Part shown: positions 196-16,065 of the stretch, piece after piece
How positions within the stretch are numbered: position 1 is the first letter of the stretch
Layout: every line of letters starts with the position of its first letter
DNA from: a virus
Taxonomy: Duplodnaviria; Caudoviricetes
Length of the DNA: 64,000 bases
Virus record (IMG/VR): IMGVR_UViG_3300028628_000004
Strand: one strand, 5' to 3'
Program-made: the position numbers and the translations under genes
The notes under the pieces: model-generated
Database searches by the model: none
What the model saw: the letters and a program-made list of their open reading frames with translations, nothing else
Told to the model about the DNA's origin: nothing

Positions 196-420
196 ATGTC
201 CCCCTTCGTCCCCATTCTTCTCAACCGTGGCTTCTGCATGGGCGCTTCTGGGCGCTTCTTCAACTCCGATGCTCTCCGCACCGACAGCGGCATCACGGTC
301 GAGCTTCGTGACGAGGGGGCTGTGGTGTCTGTGGTGTTCAATGGCGACCTGAAGATGAACATGACCTTCCCCGACACCCCCGAGGGCGTGCAGGAGTTCC
401 GAGCGGTTCTTCCCGCTTGA
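196..420 (+). CDS. hypothetical early protein
   Basis: Own promoter (147-173), GAAAGAAA leader, GC3-biased codons. Confidence 0.75.
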   Translation: MSPFVPILLNRGFCMGASGRFFNSDALRTDSGITVELRDEGAVVSVVFNGDLKMNMTFPDTPEGVQEFRAVLPA

Positions 421-466
421 CTTTCGCCGCCAGCCCATACAATCAACCTCACAAGGAAACAAACAC

Positions 467-655
467 ATGAAGGTTCTCGCTGCTCTCTTTCTCATCGTCC
501 TCCTGCTGGGTGTCGTCTTCGGCATCTCCTGCTGGGTGATGATCGTCGGCTGGGGCGTCACTCCCGCTTCCTGGGGTGTCATCATCGGCGGCTTCCTGCT
601 CAACCTGTTCGTGATGACTGGTGTGGAACTCGTCAAGAGCGCCATCAAGAACTGA
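467..655 (+). CDS. small two-TM membrane protein
   Basis: Two hydrophobic segments; AAGGA RBS; own promoter. Confidence 0.75.
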   Translation: MKVLAALFLIVLLLGVVFGISCWVMIVGWGVTPASWGVIIGGFLLNLFVMTGVELVKSAIKN

Positions 656-658
656 ACC

Positions 659-919
659 ATGCGACACTACCTCATCCAAGTCGGCTCCCACACGCTCTTC
701 GTTGACCGCATCGACGGCTACGGGAAGATCGCTCCTGCCATGATGAGCCAAGAAGAGAAGCGGTTTCGTTTCCCCCTCTACCTGACCAATGGCACGCAGC
801 TTCATGTCGAGGGGACCGAGGCTCAGTGTGTCGAGGAACAGGCGATGCTGCTGGAGCGGCTGGAGAGCATCTCCGATCCCGAGACTGACGAGAGCCACCC
901 ACAAGGCATGAGCGGCTAA
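659..919 (+). CDS. hypothetical protein
   Basis: Tight operon packing, codon bias. Confidence 0.65.
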   Translation: MRHYLIQVGSHTLFVDRIDGYGKIAPAMMSQEEKRFRFPLYLTNGTQLHVEGTEAQCVEEQAMLLERLESISDPETDESHPQGMSG

Positions 920-922
920 GCC

Positions 923-1150
923 ATGCACTACCGCAAGCTGTATCTCTGGCGTGTCAAGGTCCGTGGCATGCTTTTCTGGTGCCATGAAGCGACCCAGGAG
1001 GCTGCTCTGGTCAATCTGGAGAAGCAGACCGATGCCCCCTTGCGCGAATGGTGCCTGGAGTGGAGCATCAAGAACCTTGACGGCTCCGACATTCCCGAGG
1101 ACGAGTTGATCCACATCTGCTTCGACGGGAAGCTGGACAAAGGGGATTGA
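923..1150 (+). CDS. hypothetical protein
   Basis: Tight operon packing. Confidence 0.65.
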   Translation: MHYRKLYLWRVKVRGMLFWCHEATQEAALVNLEKQTDAPLREWCLEWSIKNLDGSDIPEDELIHICFDGKLDKGD

Positions 1151-1151
1151 C

Positions 1152-1340
1152 ATGAACATTTTGTCTGGACTTCTCTGCGCCCTGCTCTCAATCCCCGCCT
1201 GTATCTTGGCAGCGGCTCTGATCGTCTTTCTGTTCGCCCTGGTGATTGCGATTACTTCTGCGATTCTTCTTGTTGCGCTGGCAGTGGGCATCGTAGCAGT
1301 TCCCATTGTCATTCTGTGGGTTGGGCTGACAACGGATTAG
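1152..1340 (+). CDS. very hydrophobic small membrane protein
   Basis: ~55 consecutive hydrophobic residues; abuts previous stop. Confidence 0.6.
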   Translation: MNILSGLLCALLSIPACILAAALIVFLFALVIAITSAILLVALAVGIVAVPIVILWVGLTTD

Positions 1341-1377
1341 CATTTGACATTGGCGGGAAGTCGCTACACTTACCAGC

Positions 1378-1632
1378 ATGAGCAACGACCTACCCCTCAT
1401 CCTCTCCAACGCCATCTTCTCGGGTGACATGCGCCCCCTGCGCGAGCGGGTCAGTGCTGACCCCTCGCTCAAGTCGCTTTCCTTCACCTACTCCTATACC
1501 CAGGAGTTAGGCAGCGATGGCTGCTGGGATCGCACCGTGACCGAAACTGCGACCATCGACAAGTTCCTGAAGGCTGGCATCAAGAACTCTGGCAACCGCT
1601 GCTACAACTACTATCTTGTAAAGGTTGGCTGA
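1378..1632 (+). CDS. hypothetical early protein (leaderless)
   Basis: ATG 7 nt after -10 TACACT. Confidence 0.75.
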   Translation: MSNDLPLILSNAIFSGDMRPLRERVSADPSLKSLSFTYSYTQELGSDGCWDRTVTETATIDKFLKAGIKNSGNRCYNYYLVKVG

Positions 1633-1635
1633 GTC

Positions 1636-1827
1636 ATGAGCGAACCAACCAACGAAACCAAGCTGTTTCATGTGCTGTGGAATGTCGCTCGCCAGGAGCT
1701 TTGCACGAAAGCCCACAAAAAGGACGCCAAGTGCATCGTGTTGGTCACGGAGCCTGACTTCAAGCAAGTTGCGGCTGCCCTACTCCAAAACGACGAGTTC
1801 ATGGAACTCATCAAAACTCTCTCTTGA
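1636..1827 (+). CDS. hypothetical protein
   Basis: Operon packing; stop inside next -35. Confidence 0.65.
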   Translation: MSEPTNETKLFHVLWNVARQELCTKAHKKDAKCIVLVTEPDFKQVAAALLQNDEFMELIKTLS

Positions 1828-1858
1828 CATTGGCTCCCCAACTCCTACAATGACCCAC

Positions 1859-2122
1859 ATGAGCAACATCAAGCCCCTCTCCGCTGGCACCCTCACCGAG
1901 TCGATGATCTGCGGCAAGCGTCTGCCCATCAAGATCCTGAGTGCCAAGCTCCCAGCCGATCCCCGCAGCTTCATGGGCAACGAGTACGAGTGCGCCTATG
2001 TCGGCACCGAGAAGGTCTGCCTGGACTTCGGGCAGAACTGGTACGCCAGCCCTGGCGACAAGTTCACGGTCCACCAGCGCAACATCGACTCTGCTGCCGA
2101 GTGGAAGGCAAAGGGCTATTGA
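1859..2122 (+). CDS. hypothetical early protein (leaderless, MSNIKPL...)
   Basis: ATG 7 nt after TACAAT; start shortened from track ORF 1670..2122. Confidence 0.75.
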   Translation: MSNIKPLSAGTLTESMICGKRLPIKILSAKLPADPRSFMGNEYECAYVGTEKVCLDFGQNWYASPGDKFTVHQRNIDSAAEWKAKGY

Positions 2123-2164
2123 CAATCGGTTGAAAGCCATATACTCCACACAACGAAAGAAACC

Positions 2165-2647
2165 ATGAGCAACAACCCCGAATCCTATGCCCGTCTTCCC
2201 GTCACCAAGCTCGCCAGCATGATCAACGGGCTGTATAAGCGTATCGTGCGTGTCAGCCACGCCAATACGCTGAATAAGCTGATGAGATACTACGAGGTCT
2301 ATCGCAAGTCATTCATGCTGCGCCTGCGAGTACGCCTGTTCGGCGGAACTCCCCTTGATTTCCACGCATGGGTCAAGGAAAGGAAGCAGGAGCATCGCAA
2401 CGCTGGCATCTTCGATACTACGATCTTTTGGCGCTGCTTCGATGACCGAACCTATGCCACGCTCATCGGCAACATGGAGAACCTCGTCAAGTATTCGGAC
2501 GAGTATGTCCTTCTGGCTGACACTGATCTGGCGTGCCTGACTGACGCAATCGCCAAGGGCGAGAAGCTCAAGGAAGCCGACGAGTATCTGGCGAAGATGG
2601 AAGCCGAGTATCCTGGCATCTACGACACGCTCACGAAGAATGATTGA
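2165..2647 (+). CDS. hypothetical early protein
   Basis: Own promoter, GAAAGAAACC leader. Confidence 0.75.
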   Translation: MSNNPESYARLPVTKLASMINGLYKRIVRVSHANTLNKLMRYYEVYRKSFMLRLRVRLFGGTPLDFHAWVKERKQEHRNAGIFDTTIFWRCFDDRTYATLIGNMENLVKYSDEYVLLADTDLACLTDAIAKGEKLKEADEYLAKMEAEYPGIYDTLTKND

Positions 2648-2677
2648 CATGCGGCTGAAAGTCGCTATACTGCGAGC

Positions 2678-2959
2678 ATGAACACCGAAGCCATCACCCG
2701 CCGAGTCGCTTCCGAGAAAACCGAGGACGGCGATCTGCTGCTCACCTGGGAAGTCCGAGCCAAGGGCTTCGATTCCGCCCGCAAGTGGATGCAGGAGGCG
2801 GATCGCTGGATCGAAACTTGGACCGCCTGTGGCGATGGCTGGCTCGTCGCTCGCTACTGCGTCCTCGTGGATGGCGCTGAAGTCGCCATAGAAGCCCACA
2901 ACGATGAATGGGCGAGCCGACAGCAAGAGATTGAGGATGCTGGACGGGGCTGCTGGTAA
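2678..2959 (+). CDS. hypothetical early protein (leaderless)
   Basis: ATG 6 nt after TATACT. Confidence 0.75.
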   Translation: MNTEAITRRVASEKTEDGDLLLTWEVRAKGFDSARKWMQEADRWIETWTACGDGWLVARYCVLVDGAEVAIEAHNDEWASRQQEIEDAGRGCW

Positions 2960-3000
2960 TAGTCGCTTGACATTCACTCCCAACCCATACAATCAAACCC

Positions 3001-3333
3001 ATGACCGACATTCAGACCTTTTCCCGCCTGACCCCCACCGAGAAGCGCATCGAAAGCTACGCCACCATGCCCAACGGCATGCGGCTGTCGATGGTCACTC
3101 ACAAGACCTTCGATGGGCTGCTCGTCACCCGCGTATCGGCTGCCCGAGTCGAGGACGGCTTCGTCAAGTATGTCATGGGACGGGACTACAATGTTGTCCT
3201 TGAGCGTGCGAAAAAGCGATGCACCAGCAAGAATGTTCAGGAGCAGCATGACTTCCACCTGAAGGACTTCCCGATCCTGATGGAAGCGGCGACCAAGTAT
3301 TACGGCGTGACCATCGTTCAGATTGGCGCTTGA
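3001..3333 (+). CDS. hypothetical early protein (leaderless)
   Basis: ATG 7 nt after TACAAT; ends GCT-TGA in next -35. Confidence 0.75.
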   Translation: MTDIQTFSRLTPTEKRIESYATMPNGMRLSMVTHKTFDGLLVTRVSAARVEDGFVKYVMGRDYNVVLERAKKRCTSKNVQEQHDFHLKDFPILMEAATKYYGVTIVQIGA

Positions 3334-3363
3334 CAACGGCTCCCGAGCCATACAATCAAGCCC

Positions 3364-3501
3364 ATGAGAAAAGAACTCGCTGACGCTGCCAAGAAGCTCG
3401 ACGCTGCTCGTCAGGCGCTTGCCGACAACCCCAAGAGCAACAAGGCGCTGGAAGCCTTGGTCGATGCCGAGCAGGCTTACCGAGAGGCTGCGAGTCGGTG
3501 A
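3364..3501 (+). CDS. 45-aa helical protein MRKELADAAKK... (leaderless)
   Basis: Below track cutoff; ATG 7 nt after TACAAT. Confidence 0.65.
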   Translation: MRKELADAAKKLDAARQALADNPKSNKALEALVDAEQAYREAASR

Positions 3502-3545
3502 GTCACACAGCAAGCGCGCCCGTCTCACACACCTGAAAGAAACTT

Positions 3546-3743
3546 ATGAGCAACAAGATCACCCGCTACACCTGCTCCGAGTGCGATGAGGGCAACGGCA
3601 TGTTTGCCGACATGGTTGAGAGTTCGTATGGCTCCTATGTCAGCATCTACGACCTCCAGAACAAGCTGAAGCATATGCTTGAGGATGCGTGTGATCCAGG
3701 CGAGAAGGACGCGATCAACAAGATGCTTGACTTGCTGAAATAG
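3546..3743 (+). CDS. small CxxC protein
   Basis: GAAAGAAA leader; CSEC motif. Confidence 0.65.
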   Translation: MSNKITRYTCSECDEGNGMFADMVESSYGSYVSIYDLQNKLKHMLEDACDPGEKDAINKMLDLLK

Positions 3744-3759
3744 GTGTTATGATTACACT

Positions 3760-4117
3760 CGTCAAGGGGCGGGGCAGAGTAGAAGCCGAAATGTCCGTAA
3801 GTCCCCTTGACATATGTTGGGTGCCAATAGCGAATAGAGGACGGAAGTCATGACTCCGCTCCTGAACTGGGGGTAAGAACCCCAGCCCGACACCAAACGA
3901 GAGACGAGTCCGGCGGACCAGAGGACTGGGACGTAATACGCCTGCACTCTCGCTAATAAAAAGCAGGACGTTATGGGGTGAGGACGCTAGTAGGAGAGGG
4001 GTAGTGATCCTCTTCGGGCGCGTCAAAGAACACGGGAGTCACTTCCCGTAAGCTTGTAGCCAACCAAGCCCATCCCAGTATCTCGAAACTCCTGGGCAAA
4101 TGCCTGGGAGTTTTTTG
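3760..4117 (+). ncRNA. unclassified ~350-nt structured RNA
   Basis: Promoter TTGACT 3727 / TATGAT 3748; no credible + ORF; several nested stems; ends in an intrinsic terminator. Confidence 0.75.
4086..4117 (+). terminator. intrinsic terminator
   Basis: AAACTCCTGGGC-AAAT-GCCTGGGAGTTT hairpin followed by T-tract. Confidence 0.8.
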
Positions 4118-4152
4118 TTTGACTTCTCCTGCCGCTTCATATACTCACACAC

Positions 4153-4386
4153 ATGAACATCGCGCTCGAAATCCCCCGATCTGTCACCGTCAGCGACATC
4201 GGCACCTACGATGGTGTCGAGTGGTTCCGCACCTTCGTTCCTGACCTGGGCTACGACACCTACAAGGCGCTGCCCCGCGTCGTGAGCTACAAGGGCAAGT
4301 CCTTTGTCAAGATGAGCTACAACACTGACAACGGCAGTGTGTCATACAAGGCATCAACCGCTTACGCGGTGGAGGCTTCCAAGTGA
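4153..4386 (+). CDS. hypothetical early protein (leaderless)
   Basis: ATG 7 nt after TATACT. Confidence 0.75.
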   Translation: MNIALEIPRSVTVSDIGTYDGVEWFRTFVPDLGYDTYKALPRVVSYKGKSFVKMSYNTDNGSVSYKASTAYAVEASK

Positions 4387-4646
4387 CCAACATTCTCAAA
4401 TCTGGCGACCAAGTAATCGCCTCGCGCACCGTCCTCAAGCCTGAGCATGTTCGCAATAACGGCGAGGTAATCCCCGAGCGGCTCAAGACCACCATTCGCG
4501 AGGGTAGGCTGCTTCATCGTGCCAAGGGTGGCTGGATCGTGGAATGGCGTGGAGCATCTCGTAGGAGCTACACCGAGCATTTCTTCGACCACGAGATTAC
4601 CAAGGTCGGTACTAACCCCCTGCTACTGGAAGCCAGCGATAAATAA
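4383..4646 (+). CDS. hypothetical protein
   Basis: GTGA overlap coupling. Confidence 0.6.
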   Translation: MTNILKSGDQVIASRTVLKPEHVRNNGEVIPERLKTTIREGRLLHRAKGGWIVEWRGASRRSYTEHFFDHEITKVGTNPLLLEASDK

Positions 4647-4701
4647 TAATGATTGCCTAACGCAATCTTTATCATATACTAACAGAACAAGGAGAACACA
4701 A

Positions 4702-4884
4702 GTGTCGAAGAGTTGGAAAATGGGCGCGGACAAGTTCGCTCGCGCAGCCAAGAAGCAAATCAAAGTCAAGCGCAACCACCTAGAGTGGGATGACGAGGAT
4801 GACAATGATGACTACTCTAGCAGCGTCAAGCGAAACACTGAGCCAGTCGAAAGCGACAGCCCAGAAGCCACTTCGCATCGCTGA
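4702..4884 (+). CDS. small basic/acidic protein MSKSWKMG...
   Basis: AGGAG RBS, GTG start, promoter at ~4653. Confidence 0.6.
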   Translation: MSKSWKMGADKFARAAKKQIKVKRNHLEWDDEDDNDDYSSSVKRNTEPVESDSPEATSHR

Positions 4885-5029
4885 TCCGTTCGCTGAAACT
4901 GACATCTTGGATGCAGTGGAAGTCGAGCCAATAGAGCTTGACAAGCGACTTCCGTTCTTCAAGCATCTTGACGGCATGGTGTCTCTCCGTAGGCAATGGA
5001 GCAAGTTCTGGCGCTATACAGACACTTGA
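4790..5029 (+). CDS. hypothetical protein overlapping previous ORF
   Basis: Stop falls in next -35, as typical for the array; start uncertain. Confidence 0.45.
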   Translation: MTRMTMMTTLAASSETLSQSKATAQKPLRIADPFAETDILDAVEVEPIELDKRLPFFKHLDGMVSLRRQWSKFWRYTDT

Positions 5030-5059
5030 CATTGGCTCCCTGTTGATATACTACGAAGC

Positions 5060-5194
5060 ATGAAGCACAAGCACGAAACCACCGACCAGCAAGCTGCCCG
5101 CGCCAATCGGCGCTGGATGCCTCCCCCGAAGCGCGTGTTCAAGGACAAGAACCGCTACGACCGCAAGGTGATGAAGCGGGAGTCGTTCGAGTGA
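5060..5194 (+). CDS. 44-aa basic peptide (…PKRVFKDKNRYDRK…), weak ArfA-like resemblance
   Basis: Leaderless start 7 nt after TATACT; below track cutoff. Confidence 0.6.
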   Translation: MKHKHETTDQQAARANRRWMPPPKRVFKDKNRYDRKVMKRESFE

Positions 5195-5340
5195 CCGTCC
5201 TCTACTTCCTCATCGGATTTCTGGCTCTCATCGGGCTGCTCGCCATCTGTTTCGTCATTCGTCGCTTTCTGGCGACCATCAAGTACATTCTTGATACGCC
5301 AAAGGTGATTGACGAGTTTATCAACGGCAAGAGGCACTGA
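5191..5340 (+). CDS. small single-TM protein
   Basis: GTGA overlap; hydrophobic N-terminus. Confidence 0.5.
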   Translation: MTVLYFLIGFLALIGLLAICFVIRRFLATIKYILDTPKVIDEFINGKRH

Positions 5341-5403
5341 CCAGACTCTCCTTGATTTTCGCTTCCTGCTTCATACAATCATCATAGAAAAGGAGTCTAA
5401 GCC

Positions 5404-5607
5404 ATGTTCATGGTCAAGAATACCCACAACGAGTTTTTGAGCGTCGAGCCGAGGAAGTTCACCAACGTTCCTGCTGTCGTGGCTCGCTTCGTCAATGAGA
5501 CGAGCATGCGGAGCTACATCAAGGACAACCATCCCGAGGTTGCTGCTGGCACCAAGCTGGAAATGGTCGATATGGACTCTGGTCGCATCACCGAGGTCGT
5601 GCTGTGA
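5404..5607 (+). CDS. hypothetical protein
   Basis: AAGGAG RBS; own promoter. Confidence 0.7.
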   Translation: MFMVKNTHNEFLSVEPRKFTNVPAVVARFVNETSMRSYIKDNHPEVAAGTKLEMVDMDSGRITEVVL

Positions 5608-5990
5608 GCCTGGAGAGCTACTGGAACCGAGTTCGCGGCTTTTTGACCCGACATGGTGGCGTACAGGATCAAAGTGACCATAACCGCACGCGGCAGGGCG
5701 AGCATTGGGAGCTTCCTGTAGTCGCTCATGGGCGAGCGGGAAAGCTGCTCATCAGTTTCCATCCCGAGTGCCAGAGTCGAGCGATTTACCAGTGCTTCGA
5801 CAGCGGCTTGGGGCGACACATTGCAATGGAAAATGACTTCCGTACCAATGGTGTGTCATACAAGGGTTTAGTCTTTTCTCCTTTTTCGTATAAATGGAAC
5901 CTGTTGGCGAGTCGCGATGTTGACCTGAACAGGTGGGAAAGTGCGCTGCTGGAAGTGGTGCCGAAGAAGTCGCTCGCTGCTGTCGCTTGA
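5604..5990 (+). CDS. hypothetical protein
   Basis: GTGA overlap; ends LAAVA in next -35. Confidence 0.65.
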   Translation: MSLESYWNRVRGFLTRHGGVQDQSDHNRTRQGEHWELPVVAHGRAGKLLISFHPECQSRAIYQCFDSGLGRHIAMENDFRTNGVSYKGLVFSPFSYKWNLLASRDVDLNRWESALLEVVPKKSLAAVA

Positions 5991-6020
5991 CTTCCCTCCC
6001 CGAGTGATACAATCACTTCC

Positions 6021-6239
6021 ATGAGAAACTCATACACCGTCAATGTCCCACCCACCCGTGACCAGGGTGCCAGTGCCTTCTACGCTGCTGCGAGCTATAT
6101 GCAGACCATGCGGAAGGATGCACTTGACACTTATAATCGCATGCGGGCGCACGATGGGCAACCTCCGTTAGAAAAAATGCCAAACGGAACCAAGTATATC
6201 CGCAACAAGCGGGCGACCATCGTTCACAACGCTCCTTGA
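6021..6239 (+). CDS. hypothetical early protein (leaderless)
   Basis: ATG 7 nt after TACAAT. Confidence 0.7.
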   Translation: MRNSYTVNVPPTRDQGASAFYAAASYMQTMRKDALDTYNRMRAHDGQPPLEKMPNGTKYIRNKRATIVHNAP

Positions 6240-6290
6240 CTTCCCCTTCACAATCCCTACAATACAAGCGTAAGGAAAGGAGAAAGCCAC

Positions 6291-6560
6291 ATGAGCATCG
6301 ACCGCATGAAAATCGCAAGCTGCTGGAAGCTGCGCCATAAGCCTCTGTGGCGTAGCCTGATACGAGCCTACATCGGCAACGAGAAGGGTGGCGGGCGGGT
6401 TGCTCTAAAAGACATGCCCAACGAAGTTGCGAAATACTGGAAGCACAACGATGATTATGTCATCGGTCCTGGGCTGAGTCACTACCTCAAACTGATGCTG
6501 ATGGACACCAACCTCGACCGACTCCTGACTCTGGGTGTCAAGATAAATCTGGAGGCTTAG
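6291..6560 (+). CDS. hypothetical protein
   Basis: AAGGAG RBS; own promoter. Confidence 0.65.
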   Translation: MSIDRMKIASCWKLRHKPLWRSLIRAYIGNEKGGGRVALKDMPNEVAKYWKHNDDYVIGPGLSHYLKLMLMDTNLDRLLTLGVKINLEA

Positions 6561-7306
6561 AAGGTGTCCAAGTCAGCCTGTGGCACTTCACGGTTCGCTG
6601 CCTGACTCTTGACAAGCTCCTGACCGATTGGGTTCTTGGGAGTGCCAGAGAAAAACTTATTGACTTTCTCAACCATGTAGTCAACGTCCAGCTTGCCTGG
6701 GTTGTTATCGACTACGATGCAGTTCTCACCGAATAGTTGGTGATACTTGGGTATATTGTCCTGAACCTGCTTCCAGATTTCTTCAACACTTCCCGAGCCA
6801 TGTGCAGGCAACTTGCGGTCACGCTTTGCATTGCGCTCCTGGGCGACATCCAGCGAGGTAGAAACAACAAGTATCATGGTGTCGTAGCCGAGGCTTTCAA
6901 GCTTCTCTTTGCGAATAACCATGTTCTTGTAGTTCTTGCCAGTGCCGTCTATAAGTATTGGAAGATAGGAGTTGAGGTAGTTTTTGAGGAACTGCTTGAT
7001 ACTCTCCAGTGCCTTATTGCGTATGTCAAGCTGCTTGGTGCGTAAATCCTTCTCTTCTGGACTTGGCGCGTTCTCTGGTGGAATGACTTGGGGCAGATTA
7101 GCGACTTGGAGCTTCTTGACGAATAGCTTGTCGCTATCAACGACCTTTGGCTGTGGATAGACATTATCCATGAGCTTCTTGACAACGTAGCTCTTGCCGC
7201 TGCCAGGACCGCCACATAATAAGATGGCTCGTAGTTGTCCTGCATCTGTAATAGCCTCATCAACAAGTCCAAGGGCTTCCAGCATCTTTGCGCGAATAGG
7301 GTCCAT
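6557..7306 (-). CDS. P-loop kinase, zeta-toxin/AAA_33-like
   Basis: Walker A GGPGSGKS, VDSD, LIDGTG, AQERNAKRDR; AGGAG RBS and TATAAATA upstream. Confidence 0.85.
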   Translation of the reverse strand: MDPIRAKMLEALGLVDEAITDAGQLRAILLCGGPGSGKSYVVKKLMDNVYPQPKVVDSDKLFVKKLQVANLPQVIPPENAPSPEEKDLRTKQLDIRNKALESIKQFLKNYLNSYLPILIDGTGKNYKNMVIRKEKLESLGYDTMILVVSTSLDVAQERNAKRDRKLPAHGSGSVEEIWKQVQDNIPKYHQLFGENCIVVDNNPGKLDVDYMVEKVNKFFSGTPKNPIGQELVKSQAANREVPQADLDTF

Positions 7307-9374: not shown

Positions 9375-9376
9375 CC

Positions 9377-9778
9377 ATGCCTACCTTCTACGACACTTTC
9401 ATGGTGAACGGCGGGCGTGTGTTCGCCACGCATGTGCCGATCAACGCCTTCGTCACTGACGGCAAGGTCAAGCCGACCAACTCCTACTACGGCAACTCCC
9501 AGGTATATCGCCCGACCTACGAGGCGGCTGTGATCCCGAAGGGGACTCCCCTGCTGGCTTGCCCTGGTGGCATGTGGTTCGTGATGGGCGGCAAGCTGCT
9601 GGGGTTCTCGCTGGATGATCGTGACCCTGGCGAAGTGGGTGCTTTCGAGAAGCATCACGACCCGACCAATGCTCGGCTCATGCGCCTCTACGAGAAGGGT
9701 GATGTCCAGTTCATCGATGAGGGACTGCCAAGCGACTTCCAGCGCATGTACGACGAATGGCTCAAGTTAAGGGCTTGA
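9377..9778 (+). CDS. hypothetical protein
   Basis: Follows previous stop; codon bias. Confidence 0.7.
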   Translation: MPTFYDTFMVNGGRVFATHVPINAFVTDGKVKPTNSYYGNSQVYRPTYEAAVIPKGTPLLACPGGMWFVMGGKLLGFSLDDRDPGEVGAFEKHHDPTNARLMRLYEKGDVQFIDEGLPSDFQRMYDEWLKLRA

Positions 9779-9830
9779 CATTCGCTGCCACCCGATACAC
9801 TCAACCCAACAACCAACCAAGGAACCTCCC

Positions 9831-10040
9831 ATGCCCAGCAACATCAAGTCCGTTCTGCGTGTGTTCGATGCCGCTGGCATCCCCGTTGTCACCCAGAAGC
9901 GCGAGGGCGTGACCCTGCGCCGTGGCGACCGGATCGAAGTGAACAGCAACGGCGTCTGGGTGTTCGAGGGCAAGTTCCTGTCCATGGATGCGGCGGTCCA
10001 GTCGCGGCTGCTCGCCGGGAAGCGTGTGGTGCCTGCGTGA
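9831..10040 (+). CDS. hypothetical protein
   Basis: AAGGA RBS; own promoter. Confidence 0.7.
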   Translation: MPSNIKSVLRVFDAAGIPVVTQKREGVTLRRGDRIEVNSNGVWVFEGKFLSMDAAVQSRLLAGKRVVPA

Positions 10041-10213
10041 GCGGCTTCATCATTCCCATTCCGGGGCTGAATAAACCCTTTGTCGTTCCTTCGATTCCAG
10101 ACCTCGACATGACCTGGGGCAAGGGTGACGGCAAGATCAAGAACGAGAAGCGGCTCAAGCGGCAAGCCGAGAAGAAGCGGAAGAAGCTTCACCGCAAGCA
10201 AGGGAGACACTAA
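10037..10213 (+). CDS. 58-aa protein with very basic C-terminus
   Basis: GTGA overlap. Confidence 0.55.
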   Translation: MSGFIIPIPGLNKPFVVPSIPDLDMTWGKGDGKIKNEKRLKRQAEKKRKKLHRKQGRH

Positions 10214-10342
10214 TGTCTGACATCCATGACCGTGAGCGGCTGGCTACTTGACGGCAAGCTGATAGATGCGGTCAATATAAACACCATACGAGCAGAATAG
10301 TGGCTTGATTTATTTTCGGCTACTCGTATCATAAATAGAGGT

Positions 10343-10840
10343 ATGGGTAGCCTTGTCTGCATCAACGAGGAAAACTGCTACAAGGCGCTCCGAGCCGTTG
10401 AGAGGCGCTTCCAGCGTTCATCGGCTCCCGAGCGGCTCAAGCAAGTCGCCAGAACCATCAATCCTTTAGTGTTTGTATGTGGTAGAAGGGGAAATACCCT
10501 TGGACAAGCCGTAGGAGTAAGCCTGCGGTCTTTTGACTCATTACGCACAAGATACAACTTGCGTGAAAGCGTCCACCCCAGCACCAAGATTGGCAACCGA
10601 CGCTACTTCATGATCATCGAAATCAACCCACTTGCGTTCAGCAAGCTGCGTATGACACGCTGGAAGTATCTGTGTCGTGTTTTTGGACACGAATATGCCC
10701 ATTTAATAGACACAGTGTATAGAAAGCAGGCATGGGGCGGAACCACCGACTCAGACCCCGAAACTGACCACGATGAGCATTGGCAGAAGATAAGTCTCTG
10801 GTGCGGTGGCAATACGGACCCTATCATCAGCCCAAGTTAG
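10343..10840 (+). CDS. SprT-like zinc metalloprotease
   Basis: HEYAH plus downstream H..HW...C.G. Confidence 0.75.
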   Translation: MGSLVCINEENCYKALRAVERRFQRSSAPERLKQVARTINPLVFVCGRRGNTLGQAVGVSLRSFDSLRTRYNLRESVHPSTKIGNRRYFMIIEINPLAFSKLRMTRWKYLCRVFGHEYAHLIDTVYRKQAWGGTTDSDPETDHDEHWQKISLWCGGNTDPIISPS

Positions 10841-10876
10841 GCATTGACTTCCTCTGGGAGTCTCTATACTGCTGGC

Positions 10877-11305
10877 ATGCCCTACATACTCGAAGCCTAC
10901 GCCCCCGTTGAAGTGATCCTCAAGCGCAAGGATCCTGATAGTCGTGCATGGGTCGCTCGTCCAGAAACCCCCGACAATGAGTTTTGGATCGGCACCATGC
11001 ATGTGTATGACACAGAGGAAGCCTGCATCCGAGGCAATGCCCATACGCTGGAAAGCGGCATCAAGCAGATGGAATACGAAGCCAAGCAGAACATGAAGCG
11101 TGTGGAAGCGGCTAAAAAGCTGCTCCACAGCGTCTCACCGGAGGCTCGCATTAAGAAGCTGGAAGGGCTGCTCATTGCGCTGCATCACAACCTCAACACT
11201 ATCAAGTATTCTTGTGGAGAAGATGGTTGCACGGCTGGCAAGAACCTTGCCCACGAGTGTATGGACTGGATCGAAAGCCACAACATTCCCAACCTTGACA
11301 CGTAG
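10877..11305 (+). CDS. hypothetical early protein (leaderless)
   Basis: ATG 6 nt after TATACT. Confidence 0.7.
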   Translation: MPYILEAYAPVEVILKRKDPDSRAWVARPETPDNEFWIGTMHVYDTEEACIRGNAHTLESGIKQMEYEAKQNMKRVEAAKKLLHSVSPEARIKKLEGLLIALHHNLNTIKYSCGEDGCTAGKNLAHECMDWIESHNIPNLDT

Positions 11306-11328
11306 GCGGAAGGCATTAGGATACTGAC

Positions 11329-11511
11329 ATGACCCACAACATCCTCAACGCTCTGTGTAGCGGCTTGACTACCACTTGTGACAAGAAGTCACTCAAGGAG
11401 CTGCTTCTGTCCACTGGTGGCTGGACTATGGCACAGGGGCGATCCTGCGACATTTGCACCAAGCATCTTGCGGCTGGGGTCTATAAGGTGTGGTTGGAAG
11501 CGAGGCGGTAA
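11329..11511 (+). CDS. hypothetical early protein (leaderless)
   Basis: ATG 6 nt after TAGGAT. Confidence 0.65.
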   Translation: MTHNILNALCSGLTTTCDKKSLKELLLSTGGWTMAQGRSCDICTKHLAAGVYKVWLEARR

Positions 11512-11551
11512 AGTCGCTTGACTTCCTCTGGAAGTCTCTATACTCACGCTC

Positions 11552-11773
11552 ATGAACATCAACGAAATCCCCACCGAGCAACTGGAAGCCGAAATCAAGC
11601 GGCGGAATGCTGCCAAGAGCCTCAAGTCGCTCTACCCCAAGAACCTCAAGGGCGCTAAGGCGCTGCTGGGCGCGATCCTTGAGTCCTACGAAAACAGCGA
11701 TCCCTACGAGCGGAGCATCGACTACGACCTGATTGAGTATGCCAACGAGTATCTGGCGGAGAAGGTGAAGTGA
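11552..11773 (+). CDS. hypothetical early protein (leaderless)
   Basis: ATG 7 nt after TATACT. Confidence 0.7.
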   Translation: MNINEIPTEQLEAEIKRRNAAKSLKSLYPKNLKGAKALLGAILESYENSDPYERSIDYDLIEYANEYLAEKVK

Positions 11774-11988
11774 CCGACCTACCTGCCGACTTCCAGAAAA
11801 ACATTGACACCATCAACAGCATGTCCCGAGAGGAAATCGGGCGGCTGATGCGCTTTCATCCCTGCGGCGAGCCTCACCCCTACTTCGACAGCACGCTTCC
11901 CTACTGGAAGTACCTGAACGCTCGCTTTCAGGAGCTTGGCGGCTGGGACGCTGCTTTGAGCAAGCATATCGGCTGGGATAGGGCTTGA
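11770..11988 (+). CDS. hypothetical protein
   Basis: GTGA overlap; RF.ELGG....SK.IGW. Confidence 0.65.
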   Translation: MTDLPADFQKNIDTINSMSREEIGRLMRFHPCGEPHPYFDSTLPYWKYLNARFQELGGWDAALSKHIGWDRA

Positions 11989-12017
11989 CATTGCTTCCCA
12001 ACGCCTACAATACCAAC

Positions 12018-12236
12018 ATGAACATCAACGCCCTTGCCTCCCTCCTGAAGATCACTCAGGACAGCGATGTAGATGCTCGTGTGTCACTCGGCTGGGTGAC
12101 GCTTGCCCACATTGAGGAAGAGGACGGCTTCTGGTTCGTTCGCCTCAAGGGCGAGTCGGCACCGATCAGCATGCGCGGCTCCAAGAGTGTCGAAGAGGCT
12201 GTCGAGGCGCTGGTCAAGTACCTGACGCCCGAATAG
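12018..12236 (+). CDS. hypothetical early protein (leaderless)
   Basis: ATG 6 nt after TACAAT. Confidence 0.7.
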   Translation: MNINALASLLKITQDSDVDARVSLGWVTLAHIEEEDGFWFVRLKGESAPISMRGSKSVEEAVEALVKYLTPE

Positions 12237-12274
12237 TCACTTGACAGCGGCTCCCCGCTTGATACGATACGAGC

Positions 12275-12589
12275 ATGAAGAACGGCATCAACCTCTGGCT
12301 GGACGACAAGCGCAAGATGCCCGAGGGCTACGATCTGCATGTGTTCACCGCACAGGCTGCTATCGCTGCTCTGGAGACTGGCACGGTCGAGAAGGTGAGC
12401 CTGGATCACGATCTTGGTCCCGAGTGGGAGACTGGCAACGGCTACATGGTCGCCAAGTGGATTGAGGAAGCGGCTTACCTGGGCAAGATCCCGAAGCTGG
12501 AGTGGCATATCCACAGCCAGAATAGCGTCGGGGTGGCGAGCATGAAGGCTGCTCTGACCAACGCTGACCGCTACTGGGAAGGGGCTTGA
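12275..12589 (+). CDS. cyclic-phosphate-processing receiver-domain protein (cREC)
   Basis: LWLDDKR.P, VSLDHDLG, GY.VAKWIEE, HSQN.VG motifs. Confidence 0.85.
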   Translation: MKNGINLWLDDKRKMPEGYDLHVFTAQAAIAALETGTVEKVSLDHDLGPEWETGNGYMVAKWIEEAAYLGKIPKLEWHIHSQNSVGVASMKAALTNADRYWEGA

Positions 12590-12590
12590 C

Positions 12591-12806
12591 ATGCTCGAAG
12601 ACGCTCCCATCCTGAGAAAGCAACTTGAAGAGATTGCCGATGTCTTCAACGGGGCTGACATGTCGGGCTATATGAAGCTCTACCAACTACTTGGAGCCAT
12701 GCATGAGAAGCATATGGCTGGCGACAAGGATGCTGGGAAGATCCTACTGATGGTCACACGCTTCCACTCTGTCATCAAGGCGGCGAAGAATCAGAAAGTC
12801 GCTTGA
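12591..12806 (+). CDS. hypothetical protein
   Basis: Ends QKVA in next -35. Confidence 0.6.
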   Translation: MLEDAPILRKQLEEIADVFNGADMSGYMKLYQLLGAMHEKHMAGDKDAGKILLMVTRFHSVIKAAKNQKVA

Positions 12807-12836
12807 CATTCGCTCCCTGCTCCTATACTCACACAC

Positions 12837-13022
12837 ATGAGCATCAAGAACCTCTCCAAGTCTGTCCCCGCTGACCTCAAGCGGGAAATCCGCAAGGAGT
12901 TCAACGGACCCAACCACGCTGCTGTCTATGGCAAGCTCGAAGCCTTCCTGGGTGAAGAGTTCTGCGTCTACGAGGACGGCACCATCTATGCGGTTGCCAA
13001 GAGCATCGCTGGAGTCTGCTAA
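12837..13022 (+). CDS. hypothetical protein, copy 1 of duplicated cassette
   Basis: Near-identical to 14524..14709; leaderless. Confidence 0.8.
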   Translation: MSIKNLSKSVPADLKREIRKEFNGPNHAAVYGKLEAFLGEEFCVYEDGTIYAVAKSIAGVC

Positions 13023-13023
13023 C

Positions 13024-13239
13024 ATGGCAACGATCAGCATCAACGCCCACAAGCGCATCAACTGGACGCTGGAGGACAACAACGGCAAGGTTGCCCTGGA
13101 AGCCACTGACTCCGCTGGCACCTTCGATGGCTTCAACATCTCCGCCAGGGAGTCTGGTAGCGTGGGACCGACTTGGCTGAGCCTGGAGGAAGCCAAGAGT
13201 CTGCGGGATTGGCTCAACAAGGCGCTTGACAACGGCTGA
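13024..13239 (+). CDS. hypothetical protein (MATISINAHK...)
   Basis: Starts right after previous stop. Confidence 0.65.
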   Translation: MATISINAHKRINWTLEDNNGKVALEATDSAGTFDGFNISARESGSVGPTWLSLEEAKSLRDWLNKALDNG

Positions 13240-13258
13240 AAGGCTCTATACTACGAGC

Positions 13259-13576
13259 ATGACAACAGTATTTCATGTCACTCCCAAGAGAAACATTCCG
13301 AGTATCTTGAAAGGTGGATTGAAACCGAGAGTCGGTCCACGGAGCAAGTCAGCAAAAGAAAAAATACCCCGTGTCTATGTTTTCCCTGATATGGTTTCCC
13401 TAGAAGATGCTCTGTCAAACTGGCTGGGCGATGAGTTTGTCCAGCGGCTAAGTATCTTGCAACTGGAAGTCCCTGACGAGTGGCTTGTAAGTGACACTGT
13501 GCGATGGGAAGCAACCATTGATAGGATAATCCCACCCACCCATATCAAGGTACTGGTGGAAGATATTGACGCTTGA
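13259..13576 (+). CDS. ADP-ribosyltransferase-fold protein, Tpt1/KptA C-domain-like
   Basis: FHVT..NIPSILKGGLKP and RVYVF motifs; leaderless. Confidence 0.65.
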   Translation: MTTVFHVTPKRNIPSILKGGLKPRVGPRSKSAKEKIPRVYVFPDMVSLEDALSNWLGDEFVQRLSILQLEVPDEWLVSDTVRWEATIDRIIPPTHIKVLVEDIDA

Positions 13577-13605
13577 CATTCGCTCCCACCTGATATACTA
13601 CGAGC

Positions 13606-13944
13606 ATGAGCAACGAAGTCATCTCTGCCTCCCTGATGAGCATCCTGACCGAGCATGTGAACGCTCACGGCAAGGTCGATGACGCTGCCATCTGTCGGTC
13701 GATTGCCGACTACATCAACGGCATTCCCTTCACCATCTACTACGCTGATGCTCTCTACGACTTCATTCGGGAGTACGGCGAGGACTACGACGAGTCCTAC
13801 CTGGGTCGGGATGCTGACGGTGAGAAGCAGTACATCATCTTCAACAAGGAAACCAACTGGCACGACCGGATCCGCAAGGAACTGATTGCCTTGGGCTACT
13901 ACAAGGCATACGACGAGTGGGCTGCCGAGCAGAAAGTCGCTTGA
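13606..13944 (+). CDS. hypothetical early protein (leaderless)
   Basis: ATG 6 nt after TATACT; ends QKVA. Confidence 0.75.
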   Translation: MSNEVISASLMSILTEHVNAHGKVDDAAICRSIADYINGIPFTIYYADALYDFIREYGEDYDESYLGRDADGEKQYIIFNKETNWHDRIRKELIALGYYKAYDEWAAEQKVA

Positions 13945-13989
13945 CAGCGGCTCCCATTGCCTATACTAAGCCCAACAAGAAAGAAACAC

Positions 13990-14265
13990 ATGAGCAACTC
14001 CCCTTCCCATCCGTGTGCGATGTGTCTGGTCGAAGGGCGGGCAGTCCTCGCTACCGACGAGTTCAATGGCATGCATCTGTGTGCTGATTGCACCGAATGG
14101 GAGCGGAAGAACGCTGACCCGTATGAAGCGGCTGAACAGCGTGAAGCGCAGCGGGAAGCGGTCGAGGCTGGGCATGTATCAGAGGCACGGCGACTGGTCG
14201 AGAAGCTCGACACCATCGTGCGAGACAGCATTCCCGAGGACATCTGGATCTGGATTCGCGCTTGA
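13990..14265 (+). CDS. small Zn-finger protein (CxxC...CxxC)
   Basis: CAMC/CADC; GAAAGAAA leader. Confidence 0.65.
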   Translation: MSNSPSHPCAMCLVEGRAVLATDEFNGMHLCADCTEWERKNADPYEAAEQREAQREAVEAGHVSEARRLVEKLDTIVRDSIPEDIWIWIRA

Positions 14266-14295
14266 CTTCCTCCGTAAGCCACTACAATCAAGCAC

Positions 14296-14493
14296 ATGAA
14301 GAACGACAGCATCTCCGTTGCTCTCTGCGGCATCACCAAAAAGTATGGCGGCGAGGGCTGGTTCGCTGGTGTCACTGCATATGGTCGGGATCGTGTAGTC
14401 CTCTACTACAAGGATAAGAAGAACGTCCCACATGGCAACGGGCGATTCAGCAAGTTCGCTGGAGTCCATGTGAAGTGGCAGAAAGTCGCTTGA
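14296..14493 (+). CDS. hypothetical early protein flanked by 38-bp direct repeats
   Basis: Leaderless; ends QKVA. Confidence 0.7.
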   Translation: MKNDSISVALCGITKKYGGEGWFAGVTAYGRDRVVLYYKDKKNVPHGNGRFSKFAGVHVKWQKVA

Positions 14494-14523
14494 CTTCCTC
14501 TGGAAGCCACTACAATCAAGCAC

Positions 14524-14709
14524 ATGAGCATCAGCAACTACGCCAAGTCCGTCCCCTCTGACCTCAAGCGTGAGGTTCGCAAGGAGTTCAACGGACCCAA
14601 CCACGCCGCTGTCTATGAGAAGCTGGAAGCCTTCCTGGGCGAAGAGTTCTGCGTCTACGAGGACGGCACCATCTATGCGGTCGCCAAGCGGATCGCTGGA
14701 GTCGCCTAA
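14524..14709 (+). CDS. hypothetical protein, copy 2 of duplicated cassette
   Basis: Near-identical to 12837..13022. Confidence 0.8.
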   Translation: MSISNYAKSVPSDLKREVRKEFNGPNHAAVYEKLEAFLGEEFCVYEDGTIYAVAKRIAGVA

Positions 14710-14768
14710 TAGGGGCTTGACAGTGGCTTGAATCTGATTATACTCTGCTCATCAACCAAGGACAACCA

Positions 14769-15077
14769 ATGACCGACTTCAACGCTGCTCTCGACGCCTT
14801 CACCAATGCCTACCAGAAGGTTCTGGACGCTCAGAACGGCAGCTTCAAGCACTACGGCAAGGTCAAGCTGATGGTCGGCTCCAAGTTCATCCGTGTGGTC
14901 CGCACCAACGGCAACGACGAGGGCGGCTCAGTCGCTTGCTTCGTCTGCAAGGCGACTGGAGGCATCTTCAAGGCTGCTGGCTGGGCGGCTCCTGCGAAGG
15001 GCGAGCGGGCGAGCATCTTCAACGCTGAGAGCTATGCGAAGATGGACGCTTTCGGTGGGTGGCTCTATAGCCGCTGA
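14769..15077 (+). CDS. conserved phage hypothetical protein
   Basis: G.KFIRVV...SV.CFV...TG.IFKAA.W.APAKG.R pattern recalled from T4-like phages. Confidence 0.75.
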   Translation: MTDFNAALDAFTNAYQKVLDAQNGSFKHYGKVKLMVGSKFIRVVRTNGNDEGGSVACFVCKATGGIFKAAGWAAPAKGERASIFNAESYAKMDAFGGWLYSR

Positions 15078-15119
15078 ATAGGGGCTTGACAGAGGCTCCC
15101 GACGCATATACTCTCCAGC

Positions 15120-15269
15120 ATGACCCACCAAGAGAAAGCAAGCGGCTGGAAGTCCTACGATGCCATCGACTGCAAGAGCGCCCGCAAGTCGCTCCGGTGG
15201 TACAAGAAGAAGGCGCACAAGAAGCTGCGCCAGGAAGTCAAAAAGGATTTGACTCTGGACGCTGACTGA
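15120..15269 (+). CDS. 49-aa basic protein (leaderless)
   Basis: ATG 7 nt after TATACT; WYKKKAHKKLRQ. Confidence 0.6.
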   Translation: MTHQEKASGWKSYDAIDCKSARKSLRWYKKKAHKKLRQEVKKDLTLDAD

Positions 15270-15299
15270 TATACTCTGAGCATCACCCAAGGACAAGAC

Positions 15300-15614
15300 A
15301 TGCCGACCCCCGAAGAGAAGCAGATCGCCACCGCCATCCGTGACCAGATCGGCACCAACACGCTGATGTGCATCGGGGCGCACGAGTTGGGCATCGTCCC
15401 AGCGACCGACAAGATCCTGGGTGGGCTGGCGTTCAAGCTGGGGCGCAACCCGAAGATGAAGCAGGGTGGCAATGTGATGATCACGCTCCTGCCGAGTGAC
15501 ACCTACCGAGTCTGCATCATGTCGAGCCGAGGCAAGATGATGCTGGAGCAGGAGGATGTGTATTGCGACCAGTTGGGCGGTCCTGAAGGCATCATCGAAC
15601 AGGTGACGGGCTAA
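15300..15614 (+). CDS. conserved phage hypothetical protein
   Basis: IA.AI.DQIG...SDTY.V...DVYCDQL...IE..TG. Confidence 0.75.
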   Translation: MPTPEEKQIATAIRDQIGTNTLMCIGAHELGIVPATDKILGGLAFKLGRNPKMKQGGNVMITLLPSDTYRVCIMSSRGKMMLEQEDVYCDQLGGPEGIIEQVTG

Positions 15615-15696
15615 GGGGCTAAGAGGGGCTGGGAAGGGGGCTTGACAACGCCAGGAAGGCGTTATACTCTACCCATCAACCAAGGACAAGCCTCCC

Positions 15697-16041
15697 ATGC
15701 GTATCTCCAACATCAACTCCAACCTCGCCTTCAACACCGTCATGGCTCGCTTCGCGCCCAATCACGGCAAGCGGGCGGTGCGCTACGAGCCGGACGGCAA
15801 TGTGACCCTGATGGTGCTGGACGAGTGCGACCACTGCGGCGATGAGTGCGAGGGTGCCAACTCCGTGGTGCTGGTCAAGCCCGCTAAGTTCGTGATGGAG
15901 CGGCTGGAGTCGCTGGTGCGGCTGGGCAATCTGGTCAAGACGGAAGTGTGCCAGGAAAGCGGCTGCAACGATGATGGGGATTGCGTCTGCCCCTCCTGCT
16001 ACTCCGAGGGGCTGGAAGAGGCTCGTCGGATGGGGGCTTGA
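15697..16041 (+). CDS. Cys-rich hypothetical protein
   Basis: AAGGA RBS; several CxxC. Confidence 0.7.
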   Translation: MRISNINSNLAFNTVMARFAPNHGKRAVRYEPDGNVTLMVLDECDHCGDECEGANSVVLVKPAKFVMERLESLVRLGNLVKTEVCQESGCNDDGDCVCPSCYSEGLEEARRMGA

Positions 16042-16065
16042 TAGGGGCTTGATAGGGGCTTGACA
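16033..16065 (+). repeat. 3x tandem GGGGCTTGA[TC]A promoter-junction repeat
   Basis: ggggcttgata ggggcttgata ggggcttgaca. Confidence 0.85.

Follow-up and report, generated by a model that had tools for sequence, protein, structure and literature searches.

Stop codons inside predicted -35 elements and the origin of C-terminal alanines in the early-gene array of an uncultured giant phage

In a 64,000-nucleotide stretch of DNA from the IMG/VR virus record IMGVR_UViG_3300028628_000004 (Caudoviricetes; the whole stretch is called the window below) many small genes end in an alanine codon and a TGA stop that together lie in GCTTGAC, a heptamer that also looks like the -35 element of a promoter for the following gene. 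Does this junction impose an alanine on each upstream protein, perhaps as a built-in degradation tag as the initial annotation had proposed, or did the alanine merely come with a promoter laid over a stop codon? We regard the second answer as the probable one: the overlap would be a compaction of the early region, read by the host RNA polymerase, of an uncultured giant wastewater phage, and the alanine a by-product of the promoter.

The window covers bases 5482-69481 of the 101,570-bp record, which is estimated to be 44% complete and therefore belongs to a giant phage; wastewater and activated-sludge runs contain fragments of this phage or of close relatives. Its early-gene promoter array lies on the + strand at genome positions 582-21567 (window -4899 to 16086) and begins ~4.9 kb ahead of the window, so that 35 of the 45 promoters and about 55 small open reading frames (ORFs) fall within positions 1..16100. 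GCTTGAC is found 36 times in the window as compared to 6.9 +/- 2.4 times in shuffles, a five-fold excess, with 25 + strand copies within 1-16100.

Stop codons in the predicted -35 elements

Promoters were collected with a relaxed pattern (NNTTGAC, 16 nt, TAnnnT), which makes TTGAC invariant by definition of the search. All 45 promoters found in this way are on the + strand and none is on the opposite one, and a strict pattern gave 23 forward hits, 0 reverse hits and 0 hits in a reversed-pattern control. The predicted consensus is ATWGKSGC-TTGACAT, about 15 nt, TAYAMT. Its -35 is close to the TTGACA of sigma70 promoters, the base after TTGAC being A or T, and its -10 (TATACT, TACAAT or TATAAT) agrees with TATAAT at 5-6 of 6 positions in almost all promoters. 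The spacer does not fall into the 17 +/- 1 bp of sigma70 promoters, as the -10 begins 23 (sometimes 24) nt after the NN prefix and leaves 15 (16) nt after TTGACn; a standard promoter scan that requires 16-18 nt recovers only the promoters with a 16-nt spacer. In 29 of 44 promoters of the phage's own genome an ATG follows at most 9 nt after the -10 (mostly 6-8 nt), while the remaining ones have a 20-29-nt leader with AAGGA before the ATG. Most array mRNAs are predicted to be leaderless.

We sorted the junctions into three classes, in which the upstream gene stops at the TGA within TTGAC (class A), has its own stop just upstream (class B), or reads through TTGAC and stops in the spacer (class C). 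The incoming frame was scored in the 120 nt ahead of each promoter using codon log-odds trained on promoter-led ORFs. Frame calling by ORF length only, which these log-odds replaced, had left 20 of 45 junctions ambiguous in DNA so rich in GC; the codon bias of the array is strong, with 8% A and about 72% G or C (GC3) at third positions. Three relatives were found by a pattern scan of viral contigs followed by promoter counting, namely G001 (55 kb, same kind of array; a near-identical second copy of the record exists), G002 (331,849 bp, 92% complete, with the final 52 kb of the contig filled by about 70 promoters) and G003 (23.5 kb, same kind of array). Their classed junctions are as follows:

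Own genome (G000): class A 20, class B 12, class C 5
G001: class A 13, class B 10, class C 2
G002: class A 23, class B 7, class C 8
G003: class A 5, class B 6, class C 0

Tested against an expectation of 1/3, the TGA of the -35 is in frame more often than by chance in the own genome (A:C 20:5, p=2e-6; A:(B+C) 20:17, p=0.007) as well as in the four arrays pooled (A:C 61:15, binomial p=6e-17, with p<0.005 in each genome; A:(B+C) 61:50, p=2e-6). The frame bias, for which a test had been suggested in the initial annotation, is real and a property of the clade, being repeated in the three related arrays. In G002 the array genes are mostly preceded by a Shine-Dalgarno (SD) leader (51 of 63), yet the bias is as strong (23 A vs 8 C), and the overlap is therefore independent of leaderless starts. 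The 12 class B genes of the own genome stop 1-6 nt before the promoter, and class B stops mostly start 4-5 or 8-9 nt ahead of the prefix and so abut the promoter.

All 14 alanine ends that had been listed at the outset translate as noted, and their ORFs are indeed unrelated: the array genes are small (40-165 aa), and an all-vs-all BLASTP search shows a single paralogue pair among them. That the -35 doubles as the stop holds for 12 of these ends, which use the TGA of a complete promoter (GCTTGAC, 16 nt, TAYAMT; 420, 3333, 5990, 8233, 9208, 9778, 11988, 12806, 13576, 13944, 14265 and 14493), but not for 12589, where no -10 follows, or for 16041, which reads GCTTGAT. Three of the ORFs have weak coding support: those with ends at 5990 and 13576 were both rated 'low' by the automated caller, and the one that stops at 9208 scores 0.15 bits per codon. 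Stops in the -35 behind other prefixes had been missed, at 145 (CC/Pro), 1822 (TC/Ser), 2117 (TA/Tyr), 2642 (GA/Asp) and 6234 (CC/Pro). The junctions of the window are listed below, a leading hyphen marking the last residues of a protein.

145..173, +, class A junction, prefix CC; the upstream ORF ends -KLIP at 150
415..443, +, class A junction, GCTTGAC; TGA 418-420 stops ORF 196-420 (-VLPA), and the next gene has an SD leader
1822..1851, +, class A junction, prefix TC; ORF 1636-1827 ends -KTLS
2117..2145, +, class A junction, prefix TA; ORF 1859-2122 ends -KGY
2642..2671, +, class A junction, prefix GA; ORF 2165-2647 ends -TKND
3328..3356, +, class A junction, GCTTGAC; ORF 3001-3333 ends -QIGA
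5985..6013, +, GCTTGAC promoter of uncertain class; the -AAVA frame that stops at 5990 has 163 open codons but a low coding score
6234..6263, +, class A junction, prefix CC; ORF 6021-6239 ends -HNAP
8228..8256, +, class A junction, GCTTGAC; ORF 7904-8233 ends -EMVA
9203..9231, +, class A junction, GCTTGAC; ORF 8954-9208 ends -DLGA, weak coding score
9773..9801, +, class A junction, GCTTGAC; ORF 9377-9778 ends -KLRA
11983..12011, +, class A junction, GCTTGAC; ORF 11770-11988 ends -WDRA
12584..12593, +, remnant junction, GCTTGAC without -10; TGA stops the cREC_REC gene 12275-12589 (-WEGA), next ATG at 12591
12792..12829, +, class A junction with the 16-mer CAGAAAGTCGCTTGAC; ORF 12591-12806 ends -QKVA
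13571..13599, +, GCTTGAC junction with a second TTGAC 7 nt upstream; ORF 13259-13576 ends -DIDA, atypical codon use; left unscored ('low') by the automated caller and assigned to class A by hand
13930..13967, +, class A junction with the 16-mer; ORF 13606-13944 ends -EQKVA
14260..14288, +, class A junction, GCTTGAC; ORF 13990-14265 ends -WIRA
14479..14516, +, class A junction with the 16-mer; ORF 14296-14493 (an ORFan) ends -QKVA
2965..2993, +, class B example; own stop TAA 2957-2959, 5 nt ahead of GCTTGAC, GC prefix untranslated
1342, 8700, 10842, 11516, 12239, 14715, 15084, 15640 and 16058, +, further class B junctions in the window
13224..13252, +, class C example; gene 13024-13239 runs through GCTTGAC (-KALDNG), stop in the spacer
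3725, 7868, 11293 and 15247, +, further class C junctions in the window
16030..16086, +, tandem of GGGGCTTGATA x2, then GGGGCTTGACA, then the last array promoter; ORF 15697-16041 (-RMGA) has its stop in the first copy, a degenerate GCTTGAT located 17 nt ahead of the real -35

G-rich GGGGCT repeats precede the promoter at 15640 (15620-15646); these repeats and the tandem at 16030-16064 resemble copies of the -35 region made by slippage.

At 11 of 20 class A junctions of the own genome (e.g. 3328, 5985, 8228, 12801, 14488) the following ATG shares the frame of the -35 TGA and no stop intervenes. Read-through of UGA fusing neighbouring genes was considered and rejected, as the overall figure of 21 in-frame cases out of 56 is about the chance value of 1/3 and the excess in the own genome is not repeated in the relatives. 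TGA as a sense codon (codes 4 or 25) was discarded as well, since the orthologous proteins stop after the same residue on a TAA or TAG codon. A tRNA search of the window gave no suppressor tRNA and no tRNA of any kind.

Origin of the terminal alanine

The claim that the overlap forces a C-terminal alanine did not stand, as a stop in the -35 works with any prefix and G(-37)C(-36) is equally strong when untranslated. In the own genome a GC prefix is present at 11 of 20 class A junctions vs 9 of 17 in classes B and C together (p=1.0), and in the four arrays at 31 of 61 vs 19 of 50 (Cochran-Mantel-Haenszel p=0.21); stricter promoter calls with all non-A promoters as comparison gave p=0.16. The same holds base by base, for the bases from -43 to -36 (A, T, W, G, K, S, G, C) are preferred alike in translated and untranslated classes, with C(-36) in 17 of 20 class A and 18 of 23 other promoters and G(-37) in 13 of 20 and 14 of 23, respectively. 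The GC preference is a feature of the promoter. Together C(-36) and T(-35) make the last codon NCT, and class A genes therefore end mostly in Ala, then in Ser, Pro and Thr; Ser, Pro, Thr, Asp, Tyr, His or Gly is the last residue of 30 of the 61 class A genes in the four arrays. Terminal alanine is found in 20 of 64 array genes vs 3 of 91 late genes, and in about 5 of 48 genes without a -35 stop (hand tally), which equals the alanine content of 9.2%. Terminal alanine appears to have come with the promoter sequence rather than to be a built-in degradation tag.

G001 has 11 of the 64 array proteins in common, in a partly shuffled order, and the closer relative L084 has more. The informative sets are:

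-KGY, end unchanged; TATTGAC promoter in the own genome, TGAC-ATG without a promoter in G001
-PFI, end unchanged; class B in the own genome, class A with ATTTGAC in G002, no promoter in G003
-VTG, end unchanged; class B in the own genome and L084, class A with GGTTGAC in L086
-VLPA in the own genome vs -VLAV in G001, equal length; G001 ends on TGA without a promoter
-VQIGA in the own genome vs -VKM in G001 (TAA), end remodelled; G001 is two residues shorter
cREC_REC family, -WEGA/-WAGA in arrays vs -SRGEE, -GGQDE and -DDGE elsewhere
-KKP (CCTTGAC) vs -KVPA (GCTTGAC), end remodelled
Gene 13024-13239, -KALDNG through GCTTGAC vs orthologues with -KSLPA (including G001), no promoter

In most orthologues the C-terminus stays the same, whether the promoter overlaps the stop, adjoins it or lies elsewhere. 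The expectation that homologues diverge exactly at the junction was thus borne out in part: some ends are remodelled by 1-3 residues, whereas several sets (KGY, PFI, VTG and the xxAA ends described below) keep the native end. In three families with informative relatives the alanine is absent where the promoter is absent, and the G001 orthologue of the cREC_REC protein (-WAGA) stops in a complete GCTTGAC promoter. The difference between -KALDNG and -KSLPA would fit a promoter arising, or decaying, through point changes in the coding end. The protein 12275-12589 itself carries a cREC_REC (cyclic-phosphate processing receiver) domain (Pfam E=2e-24) and has relatives in other phages outside promoter arrays.

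The most conspicuous ends are those in QKVA. The 16-mer CAGAAAGTCGCTTGAC that encodes them is present in exactly 3 copies, as had been noted, where 0.04 would be expected, and the three genes share nothing beyond it. One of them, 13606-13944 (112 aa), forms a family of 14 together with its 13 relatives from the databases, and [V/A]-Ala is the C-terminus of 13 of these 14 proteins. Metagenome DNA contexts show members with a promoter overlap (-REVA, -QKAA and -HKAA, each with GCTTGAC) and members without a promoter (-QKAA with GCG-TAG; -EAEAA and -KKAA with GCT-TAA; -VPA and -VTA with GCA-TAA). An imposed tail therefore fails for this flagship case, as its relatives end alike on TAA or TAG with no promoter; judged from these sequences, the alanine is native to the family and the promoter was placed over it. 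Database searches with 14296-14493 gave no homologue besides the protein itself, and 12591-12806, compared locally with the fetched loci only, showed no informative relatives.

From these data we propose the following course of events. Nearly every small gene would have its own sigma70-like promoter, with an ATG at the expected transcription start in about two thirds, and intergenic DNA would be essentially nil, the roughly 36 nt from -35 to start making up the whole gap. The cheapest packing would then be to lay TTGAC over the TGA of the preceding gene. A TGA stop followed by C already supplies four of the six -35 bases, so a T at the last wobble position and the C after the stop would suffice, and this T should cost most proteins nothing. 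The phase with the stop in the -35 would be over-represented because the other frames need either a separate stop or a fixed Leu-Asp or Leu-Thr plus a tail encoded by the spacer. Terminal alanine would be common because the promoters of this lineage prefer G(-37) and C(-36), so that NCT is the usual last codon and GCT its commonest form. Sometimes the promoter may have been fitted to a native stop with the end unchanged, and sometimes the end may have been remodelled by 1-3 residues. Copies of the junction with a few upstream codons such as CAGAAAGTC might then have spread locally by recombination between promoters, which would move whole cassettes.

Several points weigh against this explanation. 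The trend towards GC at translated -35s is positive in all four arrays, although it is significant only in the smallest (G003, 4/5 vs 0/6, p=0.015), and this trend would agree with a modest preference for alanine as last residue. Furthermore, 8 of the 45 own-genome junctions were not classed by the automated caller. With a 15-16-nt spacer, reading by the unmodified holoenzyme of the host is an assumption. Promoter activity, leaderless starts and selection for compactness are what we infer from the arrangement of the array.

Possible alternatives: copied tails, re-initiation and degradation tags

As an addition to compaction rather than a replacement for it, the tails may have been copied instead of selected. 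Recombination between promoter repeats, or gene conversion, would then overwrite the 3' ends of neighbouring genes (sub-families CAGAAAGTC-GCTTGAC and GGG-GCTTGAC), and the alanine excess would mostly reflect shared descent. We hold this as a tentative but serious possibility. The 16-mer stands three times behind genes without further similarity, its codons are native in the 13606-13944 family, which suggests a source, and the tail plus promoter may have been copied from there to the other two QKVA genes. The upstream words GTCGCTTGAC (8 copies) and GGGGCTTGAC (6 copies) are confined to the own genome and near relatives, with none in G002 or G003. The same upstream words, however, also occur at noncoding class B promoters and so may be promoter-proximal signals, and two of the three QKVA genes lack informative relatives from which to read the direction of copying.

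Breakpoints between related genomes also lie in or next to promoters. DNA homology between the own genome and G001 stops right after GCTTGACA at 12591. In one wastewater contig 12255 is followed, after 5 other letters, by 14510; 2254 nt are skipped, and the spacer of the promoter at 12239 is connected to that of the promoter at 14488. A single foreign sequence, common to two runs, stops at 15082, which is two bases short of a GCTTGAC. In L084 the homologue of 12018 is directly followed by a gene of the 12837/14524 type, and the two intervening cassettes are lacking. Strain variants therefore differ by whole cassettes, and the breakpoints fall at or in promoters. The idea of a modular junction therefore stands, in that the -35 gives the upstream ORF its stop, belongs to the predicted promoter of the next gene and marks where cassettes are gained and lost.

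A second alternative places the benefit in translation. A stop in the -35 sets the distance from stop to AUG at about 30 nt, and terminating 70S ribosomes could re-initiate at the next leaderless-type AUG on read-through transcripts. Scanning and re-initiation of 70S ribosomes over short distances are established in E. coli and count in its favour. The array would offer the substrates: 17 kb of it hold only one strong terminator, at 4085-4114, the number of terminator-like structures not being above that in shuffles, so that read-through transcripts would carry many genes without an SD; the leaderless ATG behind 29 of the 44 own-genome promoters points in the same direction, and at about 86% of the classed junctions a class A or B stop is separated from the next ATG by no more than about 30-40 nt. 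We nevertheless consider re-initiation an unlikely reason for the overlap, as the SD-led G002 array (51/63) has an equal frame bias and the next ATG is in frame with the stop no more often than by chance (21/56, about 1/3).

The remaining alternatives concern protein turnover. The window does encode ClpP-family (52483-53208) and ClpS-family (about 28972-29175) proteins, as the initial annotation had stated. The ClpP-family protein matches Pfam CLP_protease, with head maturation protease as best PHROG (9e-29 vs 8e-15 for ATP-dependent protease), and no clpX was found in the 101.6-kb fragment, which is 44% complete; a regulatory ClpP with a partner unfoldase and a best match to cellular ClpP is not what we see. 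ClpS is an adaptor that recognises N-degrons, and Tsp works in the periplasm. When C-terminal pentapeptides were screened in E. coli (PMC10862746), about 1% of them acted as degrons, with the consensus [L/F/Y/W]-[L/A/R]-L-A-A and FKLVA as top tag. A hydrophobic residue (Leu) is favoured third from the end, and 91% of the top 100 end in Ala-Ala, a pair that does not suffice by itself. Depletion was seen for Gly and Ser across the whole tag, for Arg at the two final positions and for Pro, His and Gly third from the end (PMC10862746). The 14 window tails end in VA (5), GA (4), RA (3), DA (1) and PA (1) and never in AA, and one gene upstream of the window ends in -FFAA. Their third-last residues are L, I, A, M, L, L, D, E, K, K, K, I, I and M, and wherever Leu or Ile stands there it is followed by P, G, R or D. 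Tails that do not fit the E. coli ClpXP rules, a ClpP resembling prohead proteases, a fragment in which no clpX was found and the roles of ClpS and Tsp together leave the proposed Clp-read turnover tag unsupported.

In its narrower form, turnover would concern only a subset of early proteins with -VA or -AA tails, above all the 13606-13944 family, which would carry a genuine C-terminal turnover or recognition tag, while the preferred GCTTGAC -35 grew from such Ala-TGA ends, co-evolved with them and spread together with them to neighbouring cassettes; we think this quite improbable. In the only structure we modelled, that of 13606-13944 (predicted local distance difference test, pLDDT, 89.5), the tail is predicted to be the end of helix 98-111 (pLDDT about 83-89) and not a free tail. 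In its broad form, in which the junction deliberately gives early proteins a C-terminal alanine to be read by host or phage Clp or Tsp and cleared on schedule, the idea can draw on the over-representation of terminal alanine (20/64), on five -VA tails in the window and the -FFAA upstream, as LVA and AA types are strong ClpXP degrons in E. coli (PMC10862746), on the [V/A]-A kept by 13 of 14 members of the 13606 family even without overlap and on the weak GC trend, but it is very improbable given that GC at -37/-36 is as frequent when untranslated, that about half of the class A genes (30/61) end in other residues, that most tails are GA, RA, DA or PA, with Gly, Ser and Arg depleted near the end in the screen, that alanine is absent without a promoter in three families, that the 13606-family tail is modelled as a helix end, and that the protease partners do not fit. 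If true it would be a built-in timer for early proteins, which the present evidence does not favour.

Known systems and the surroundings of the array

Large phages are well known to have tandem early promoters and promoters that extend into the gene before them. The early promoter array of T4 and the pre-early and early arrays of T5 likewise consist of many tandem sigma70-type promoters on one strand, each driving one or a few small, mostly unknown and fast-evolving early genes; these promoters often overlap the 3' end of the gene ahead of them, and the region is located at a genome end. Unlike in T4 and T5, the TGA of the -35 is here systematically the stop (61 of 111 classed junctions in the four arrays), the spacer has 15-16 nt, a leader is mostly lacking in the own genome, and the array is far richer in GC than the rest of the genome. 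A literature search for a rule of stop/-35 overlap gave no description of a systematic use of the -35 TGA as stop.

Two other systems invite comparison. The stop/start overlaps (ATGA, TGATG) of coupled operon genes also put two signals on the same bases with no intergenic DNA, and such overlaps exist within the array itself (e.g. GTGA at 8954 and 11770), but at the junctions described here the stop overlaps a transcription signal and the two genes are predicted to be on separate primary transcripts. The ssrA-like (C-motif 1) ClpXP degrons ending in -LAA or -LVA share the terminal alanine, and a few window tails end in -VA (QKVA three times, EMVA and AAVA); unlike these degrons, no window tail has Ala-Ala or a third-last Leu in a fitting context, and most have Gly, Arg, Asp or Pro before the alanine (PMC10862746).

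The overlap offers an annotation rule for early regions of giant phages, in which a gene extends from the ATG set by the -10 to the stop set by the next -35. This helps to call dozens of tiny ORFans that gene finders miss or end wrongly. It is also a quantified case of transcription and translation signals sharing bases, in which the consensus imprints C-termini in Ala, Ser, Pro or Thr and N-termini in Met-Ser, and a caution that a striking excess of one terminal residue need not imply a function at the protein level. As to the N-termini, leaderless genes begin with Met-Ser in 11 of 29 cases in the own genome (e.g. 1378, 1859, 2165, 8736, 13606, 13990, 16093) and in 15 of 24 in G001, and Met-Ser-Asn starts (mostly ATGAGCAAC) were found in unrelated genes 5 times in the own genome and 8 times in G001. 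The start region seems to constrain N-termini much as the -35 constrains C-termini.

The part of the array in the first 16.1 kb of the window has a GC content of about 55-58%, as compared to about 35-49% downstream, with the boundary at ~16100. The related arrays are located at contig ends, at the start in G001 and over the last 52 kb in G002. The GC boundary and the position of the arrays at contig ends suggest a first-entering genome end with its own composition. A Pfam scan of 10 array proteins gave 1 match, the cREC_REC domain in 12275-12589, and megablast of the window against a phage collection gave no match.

An AT-rich hairpin element, CCTGCTATAATA...TATTAGCAGG, is present in six copies in the G001 array (~1252, 3327, 6967, 13055, 15681 and 18398; L010-L012), directly after gene ends, and again in the own genome (window -1270 to -1077), where it adjoins an AT-rich HNH-type insert upstream of the window; it may be a mobile element or a terminator. 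Three large phage contigs, G004, G006 and L051 (IMG/VR 3300037842_000445, 3300007960_000050 and 3300037808_000364), have arrays of another promoter family, TTGACAATGACGATAA...TATAAT, in which the spacer has the canonical 17 nt and contains a conserved CGATAA motif; these contigs were excluded from the statistics. Downstream of the array, genes at 19990-21183, 24347-25435, 29951-30568, 30607-31365 and 32951-34189 encode a CCA-adding/poly(A) polymerase-type enzyme, three RNA-ligase-family proteins and a metallophosphoesterase, and this cluster within 19990-34189 looks like a tRNA/RNA repair module.

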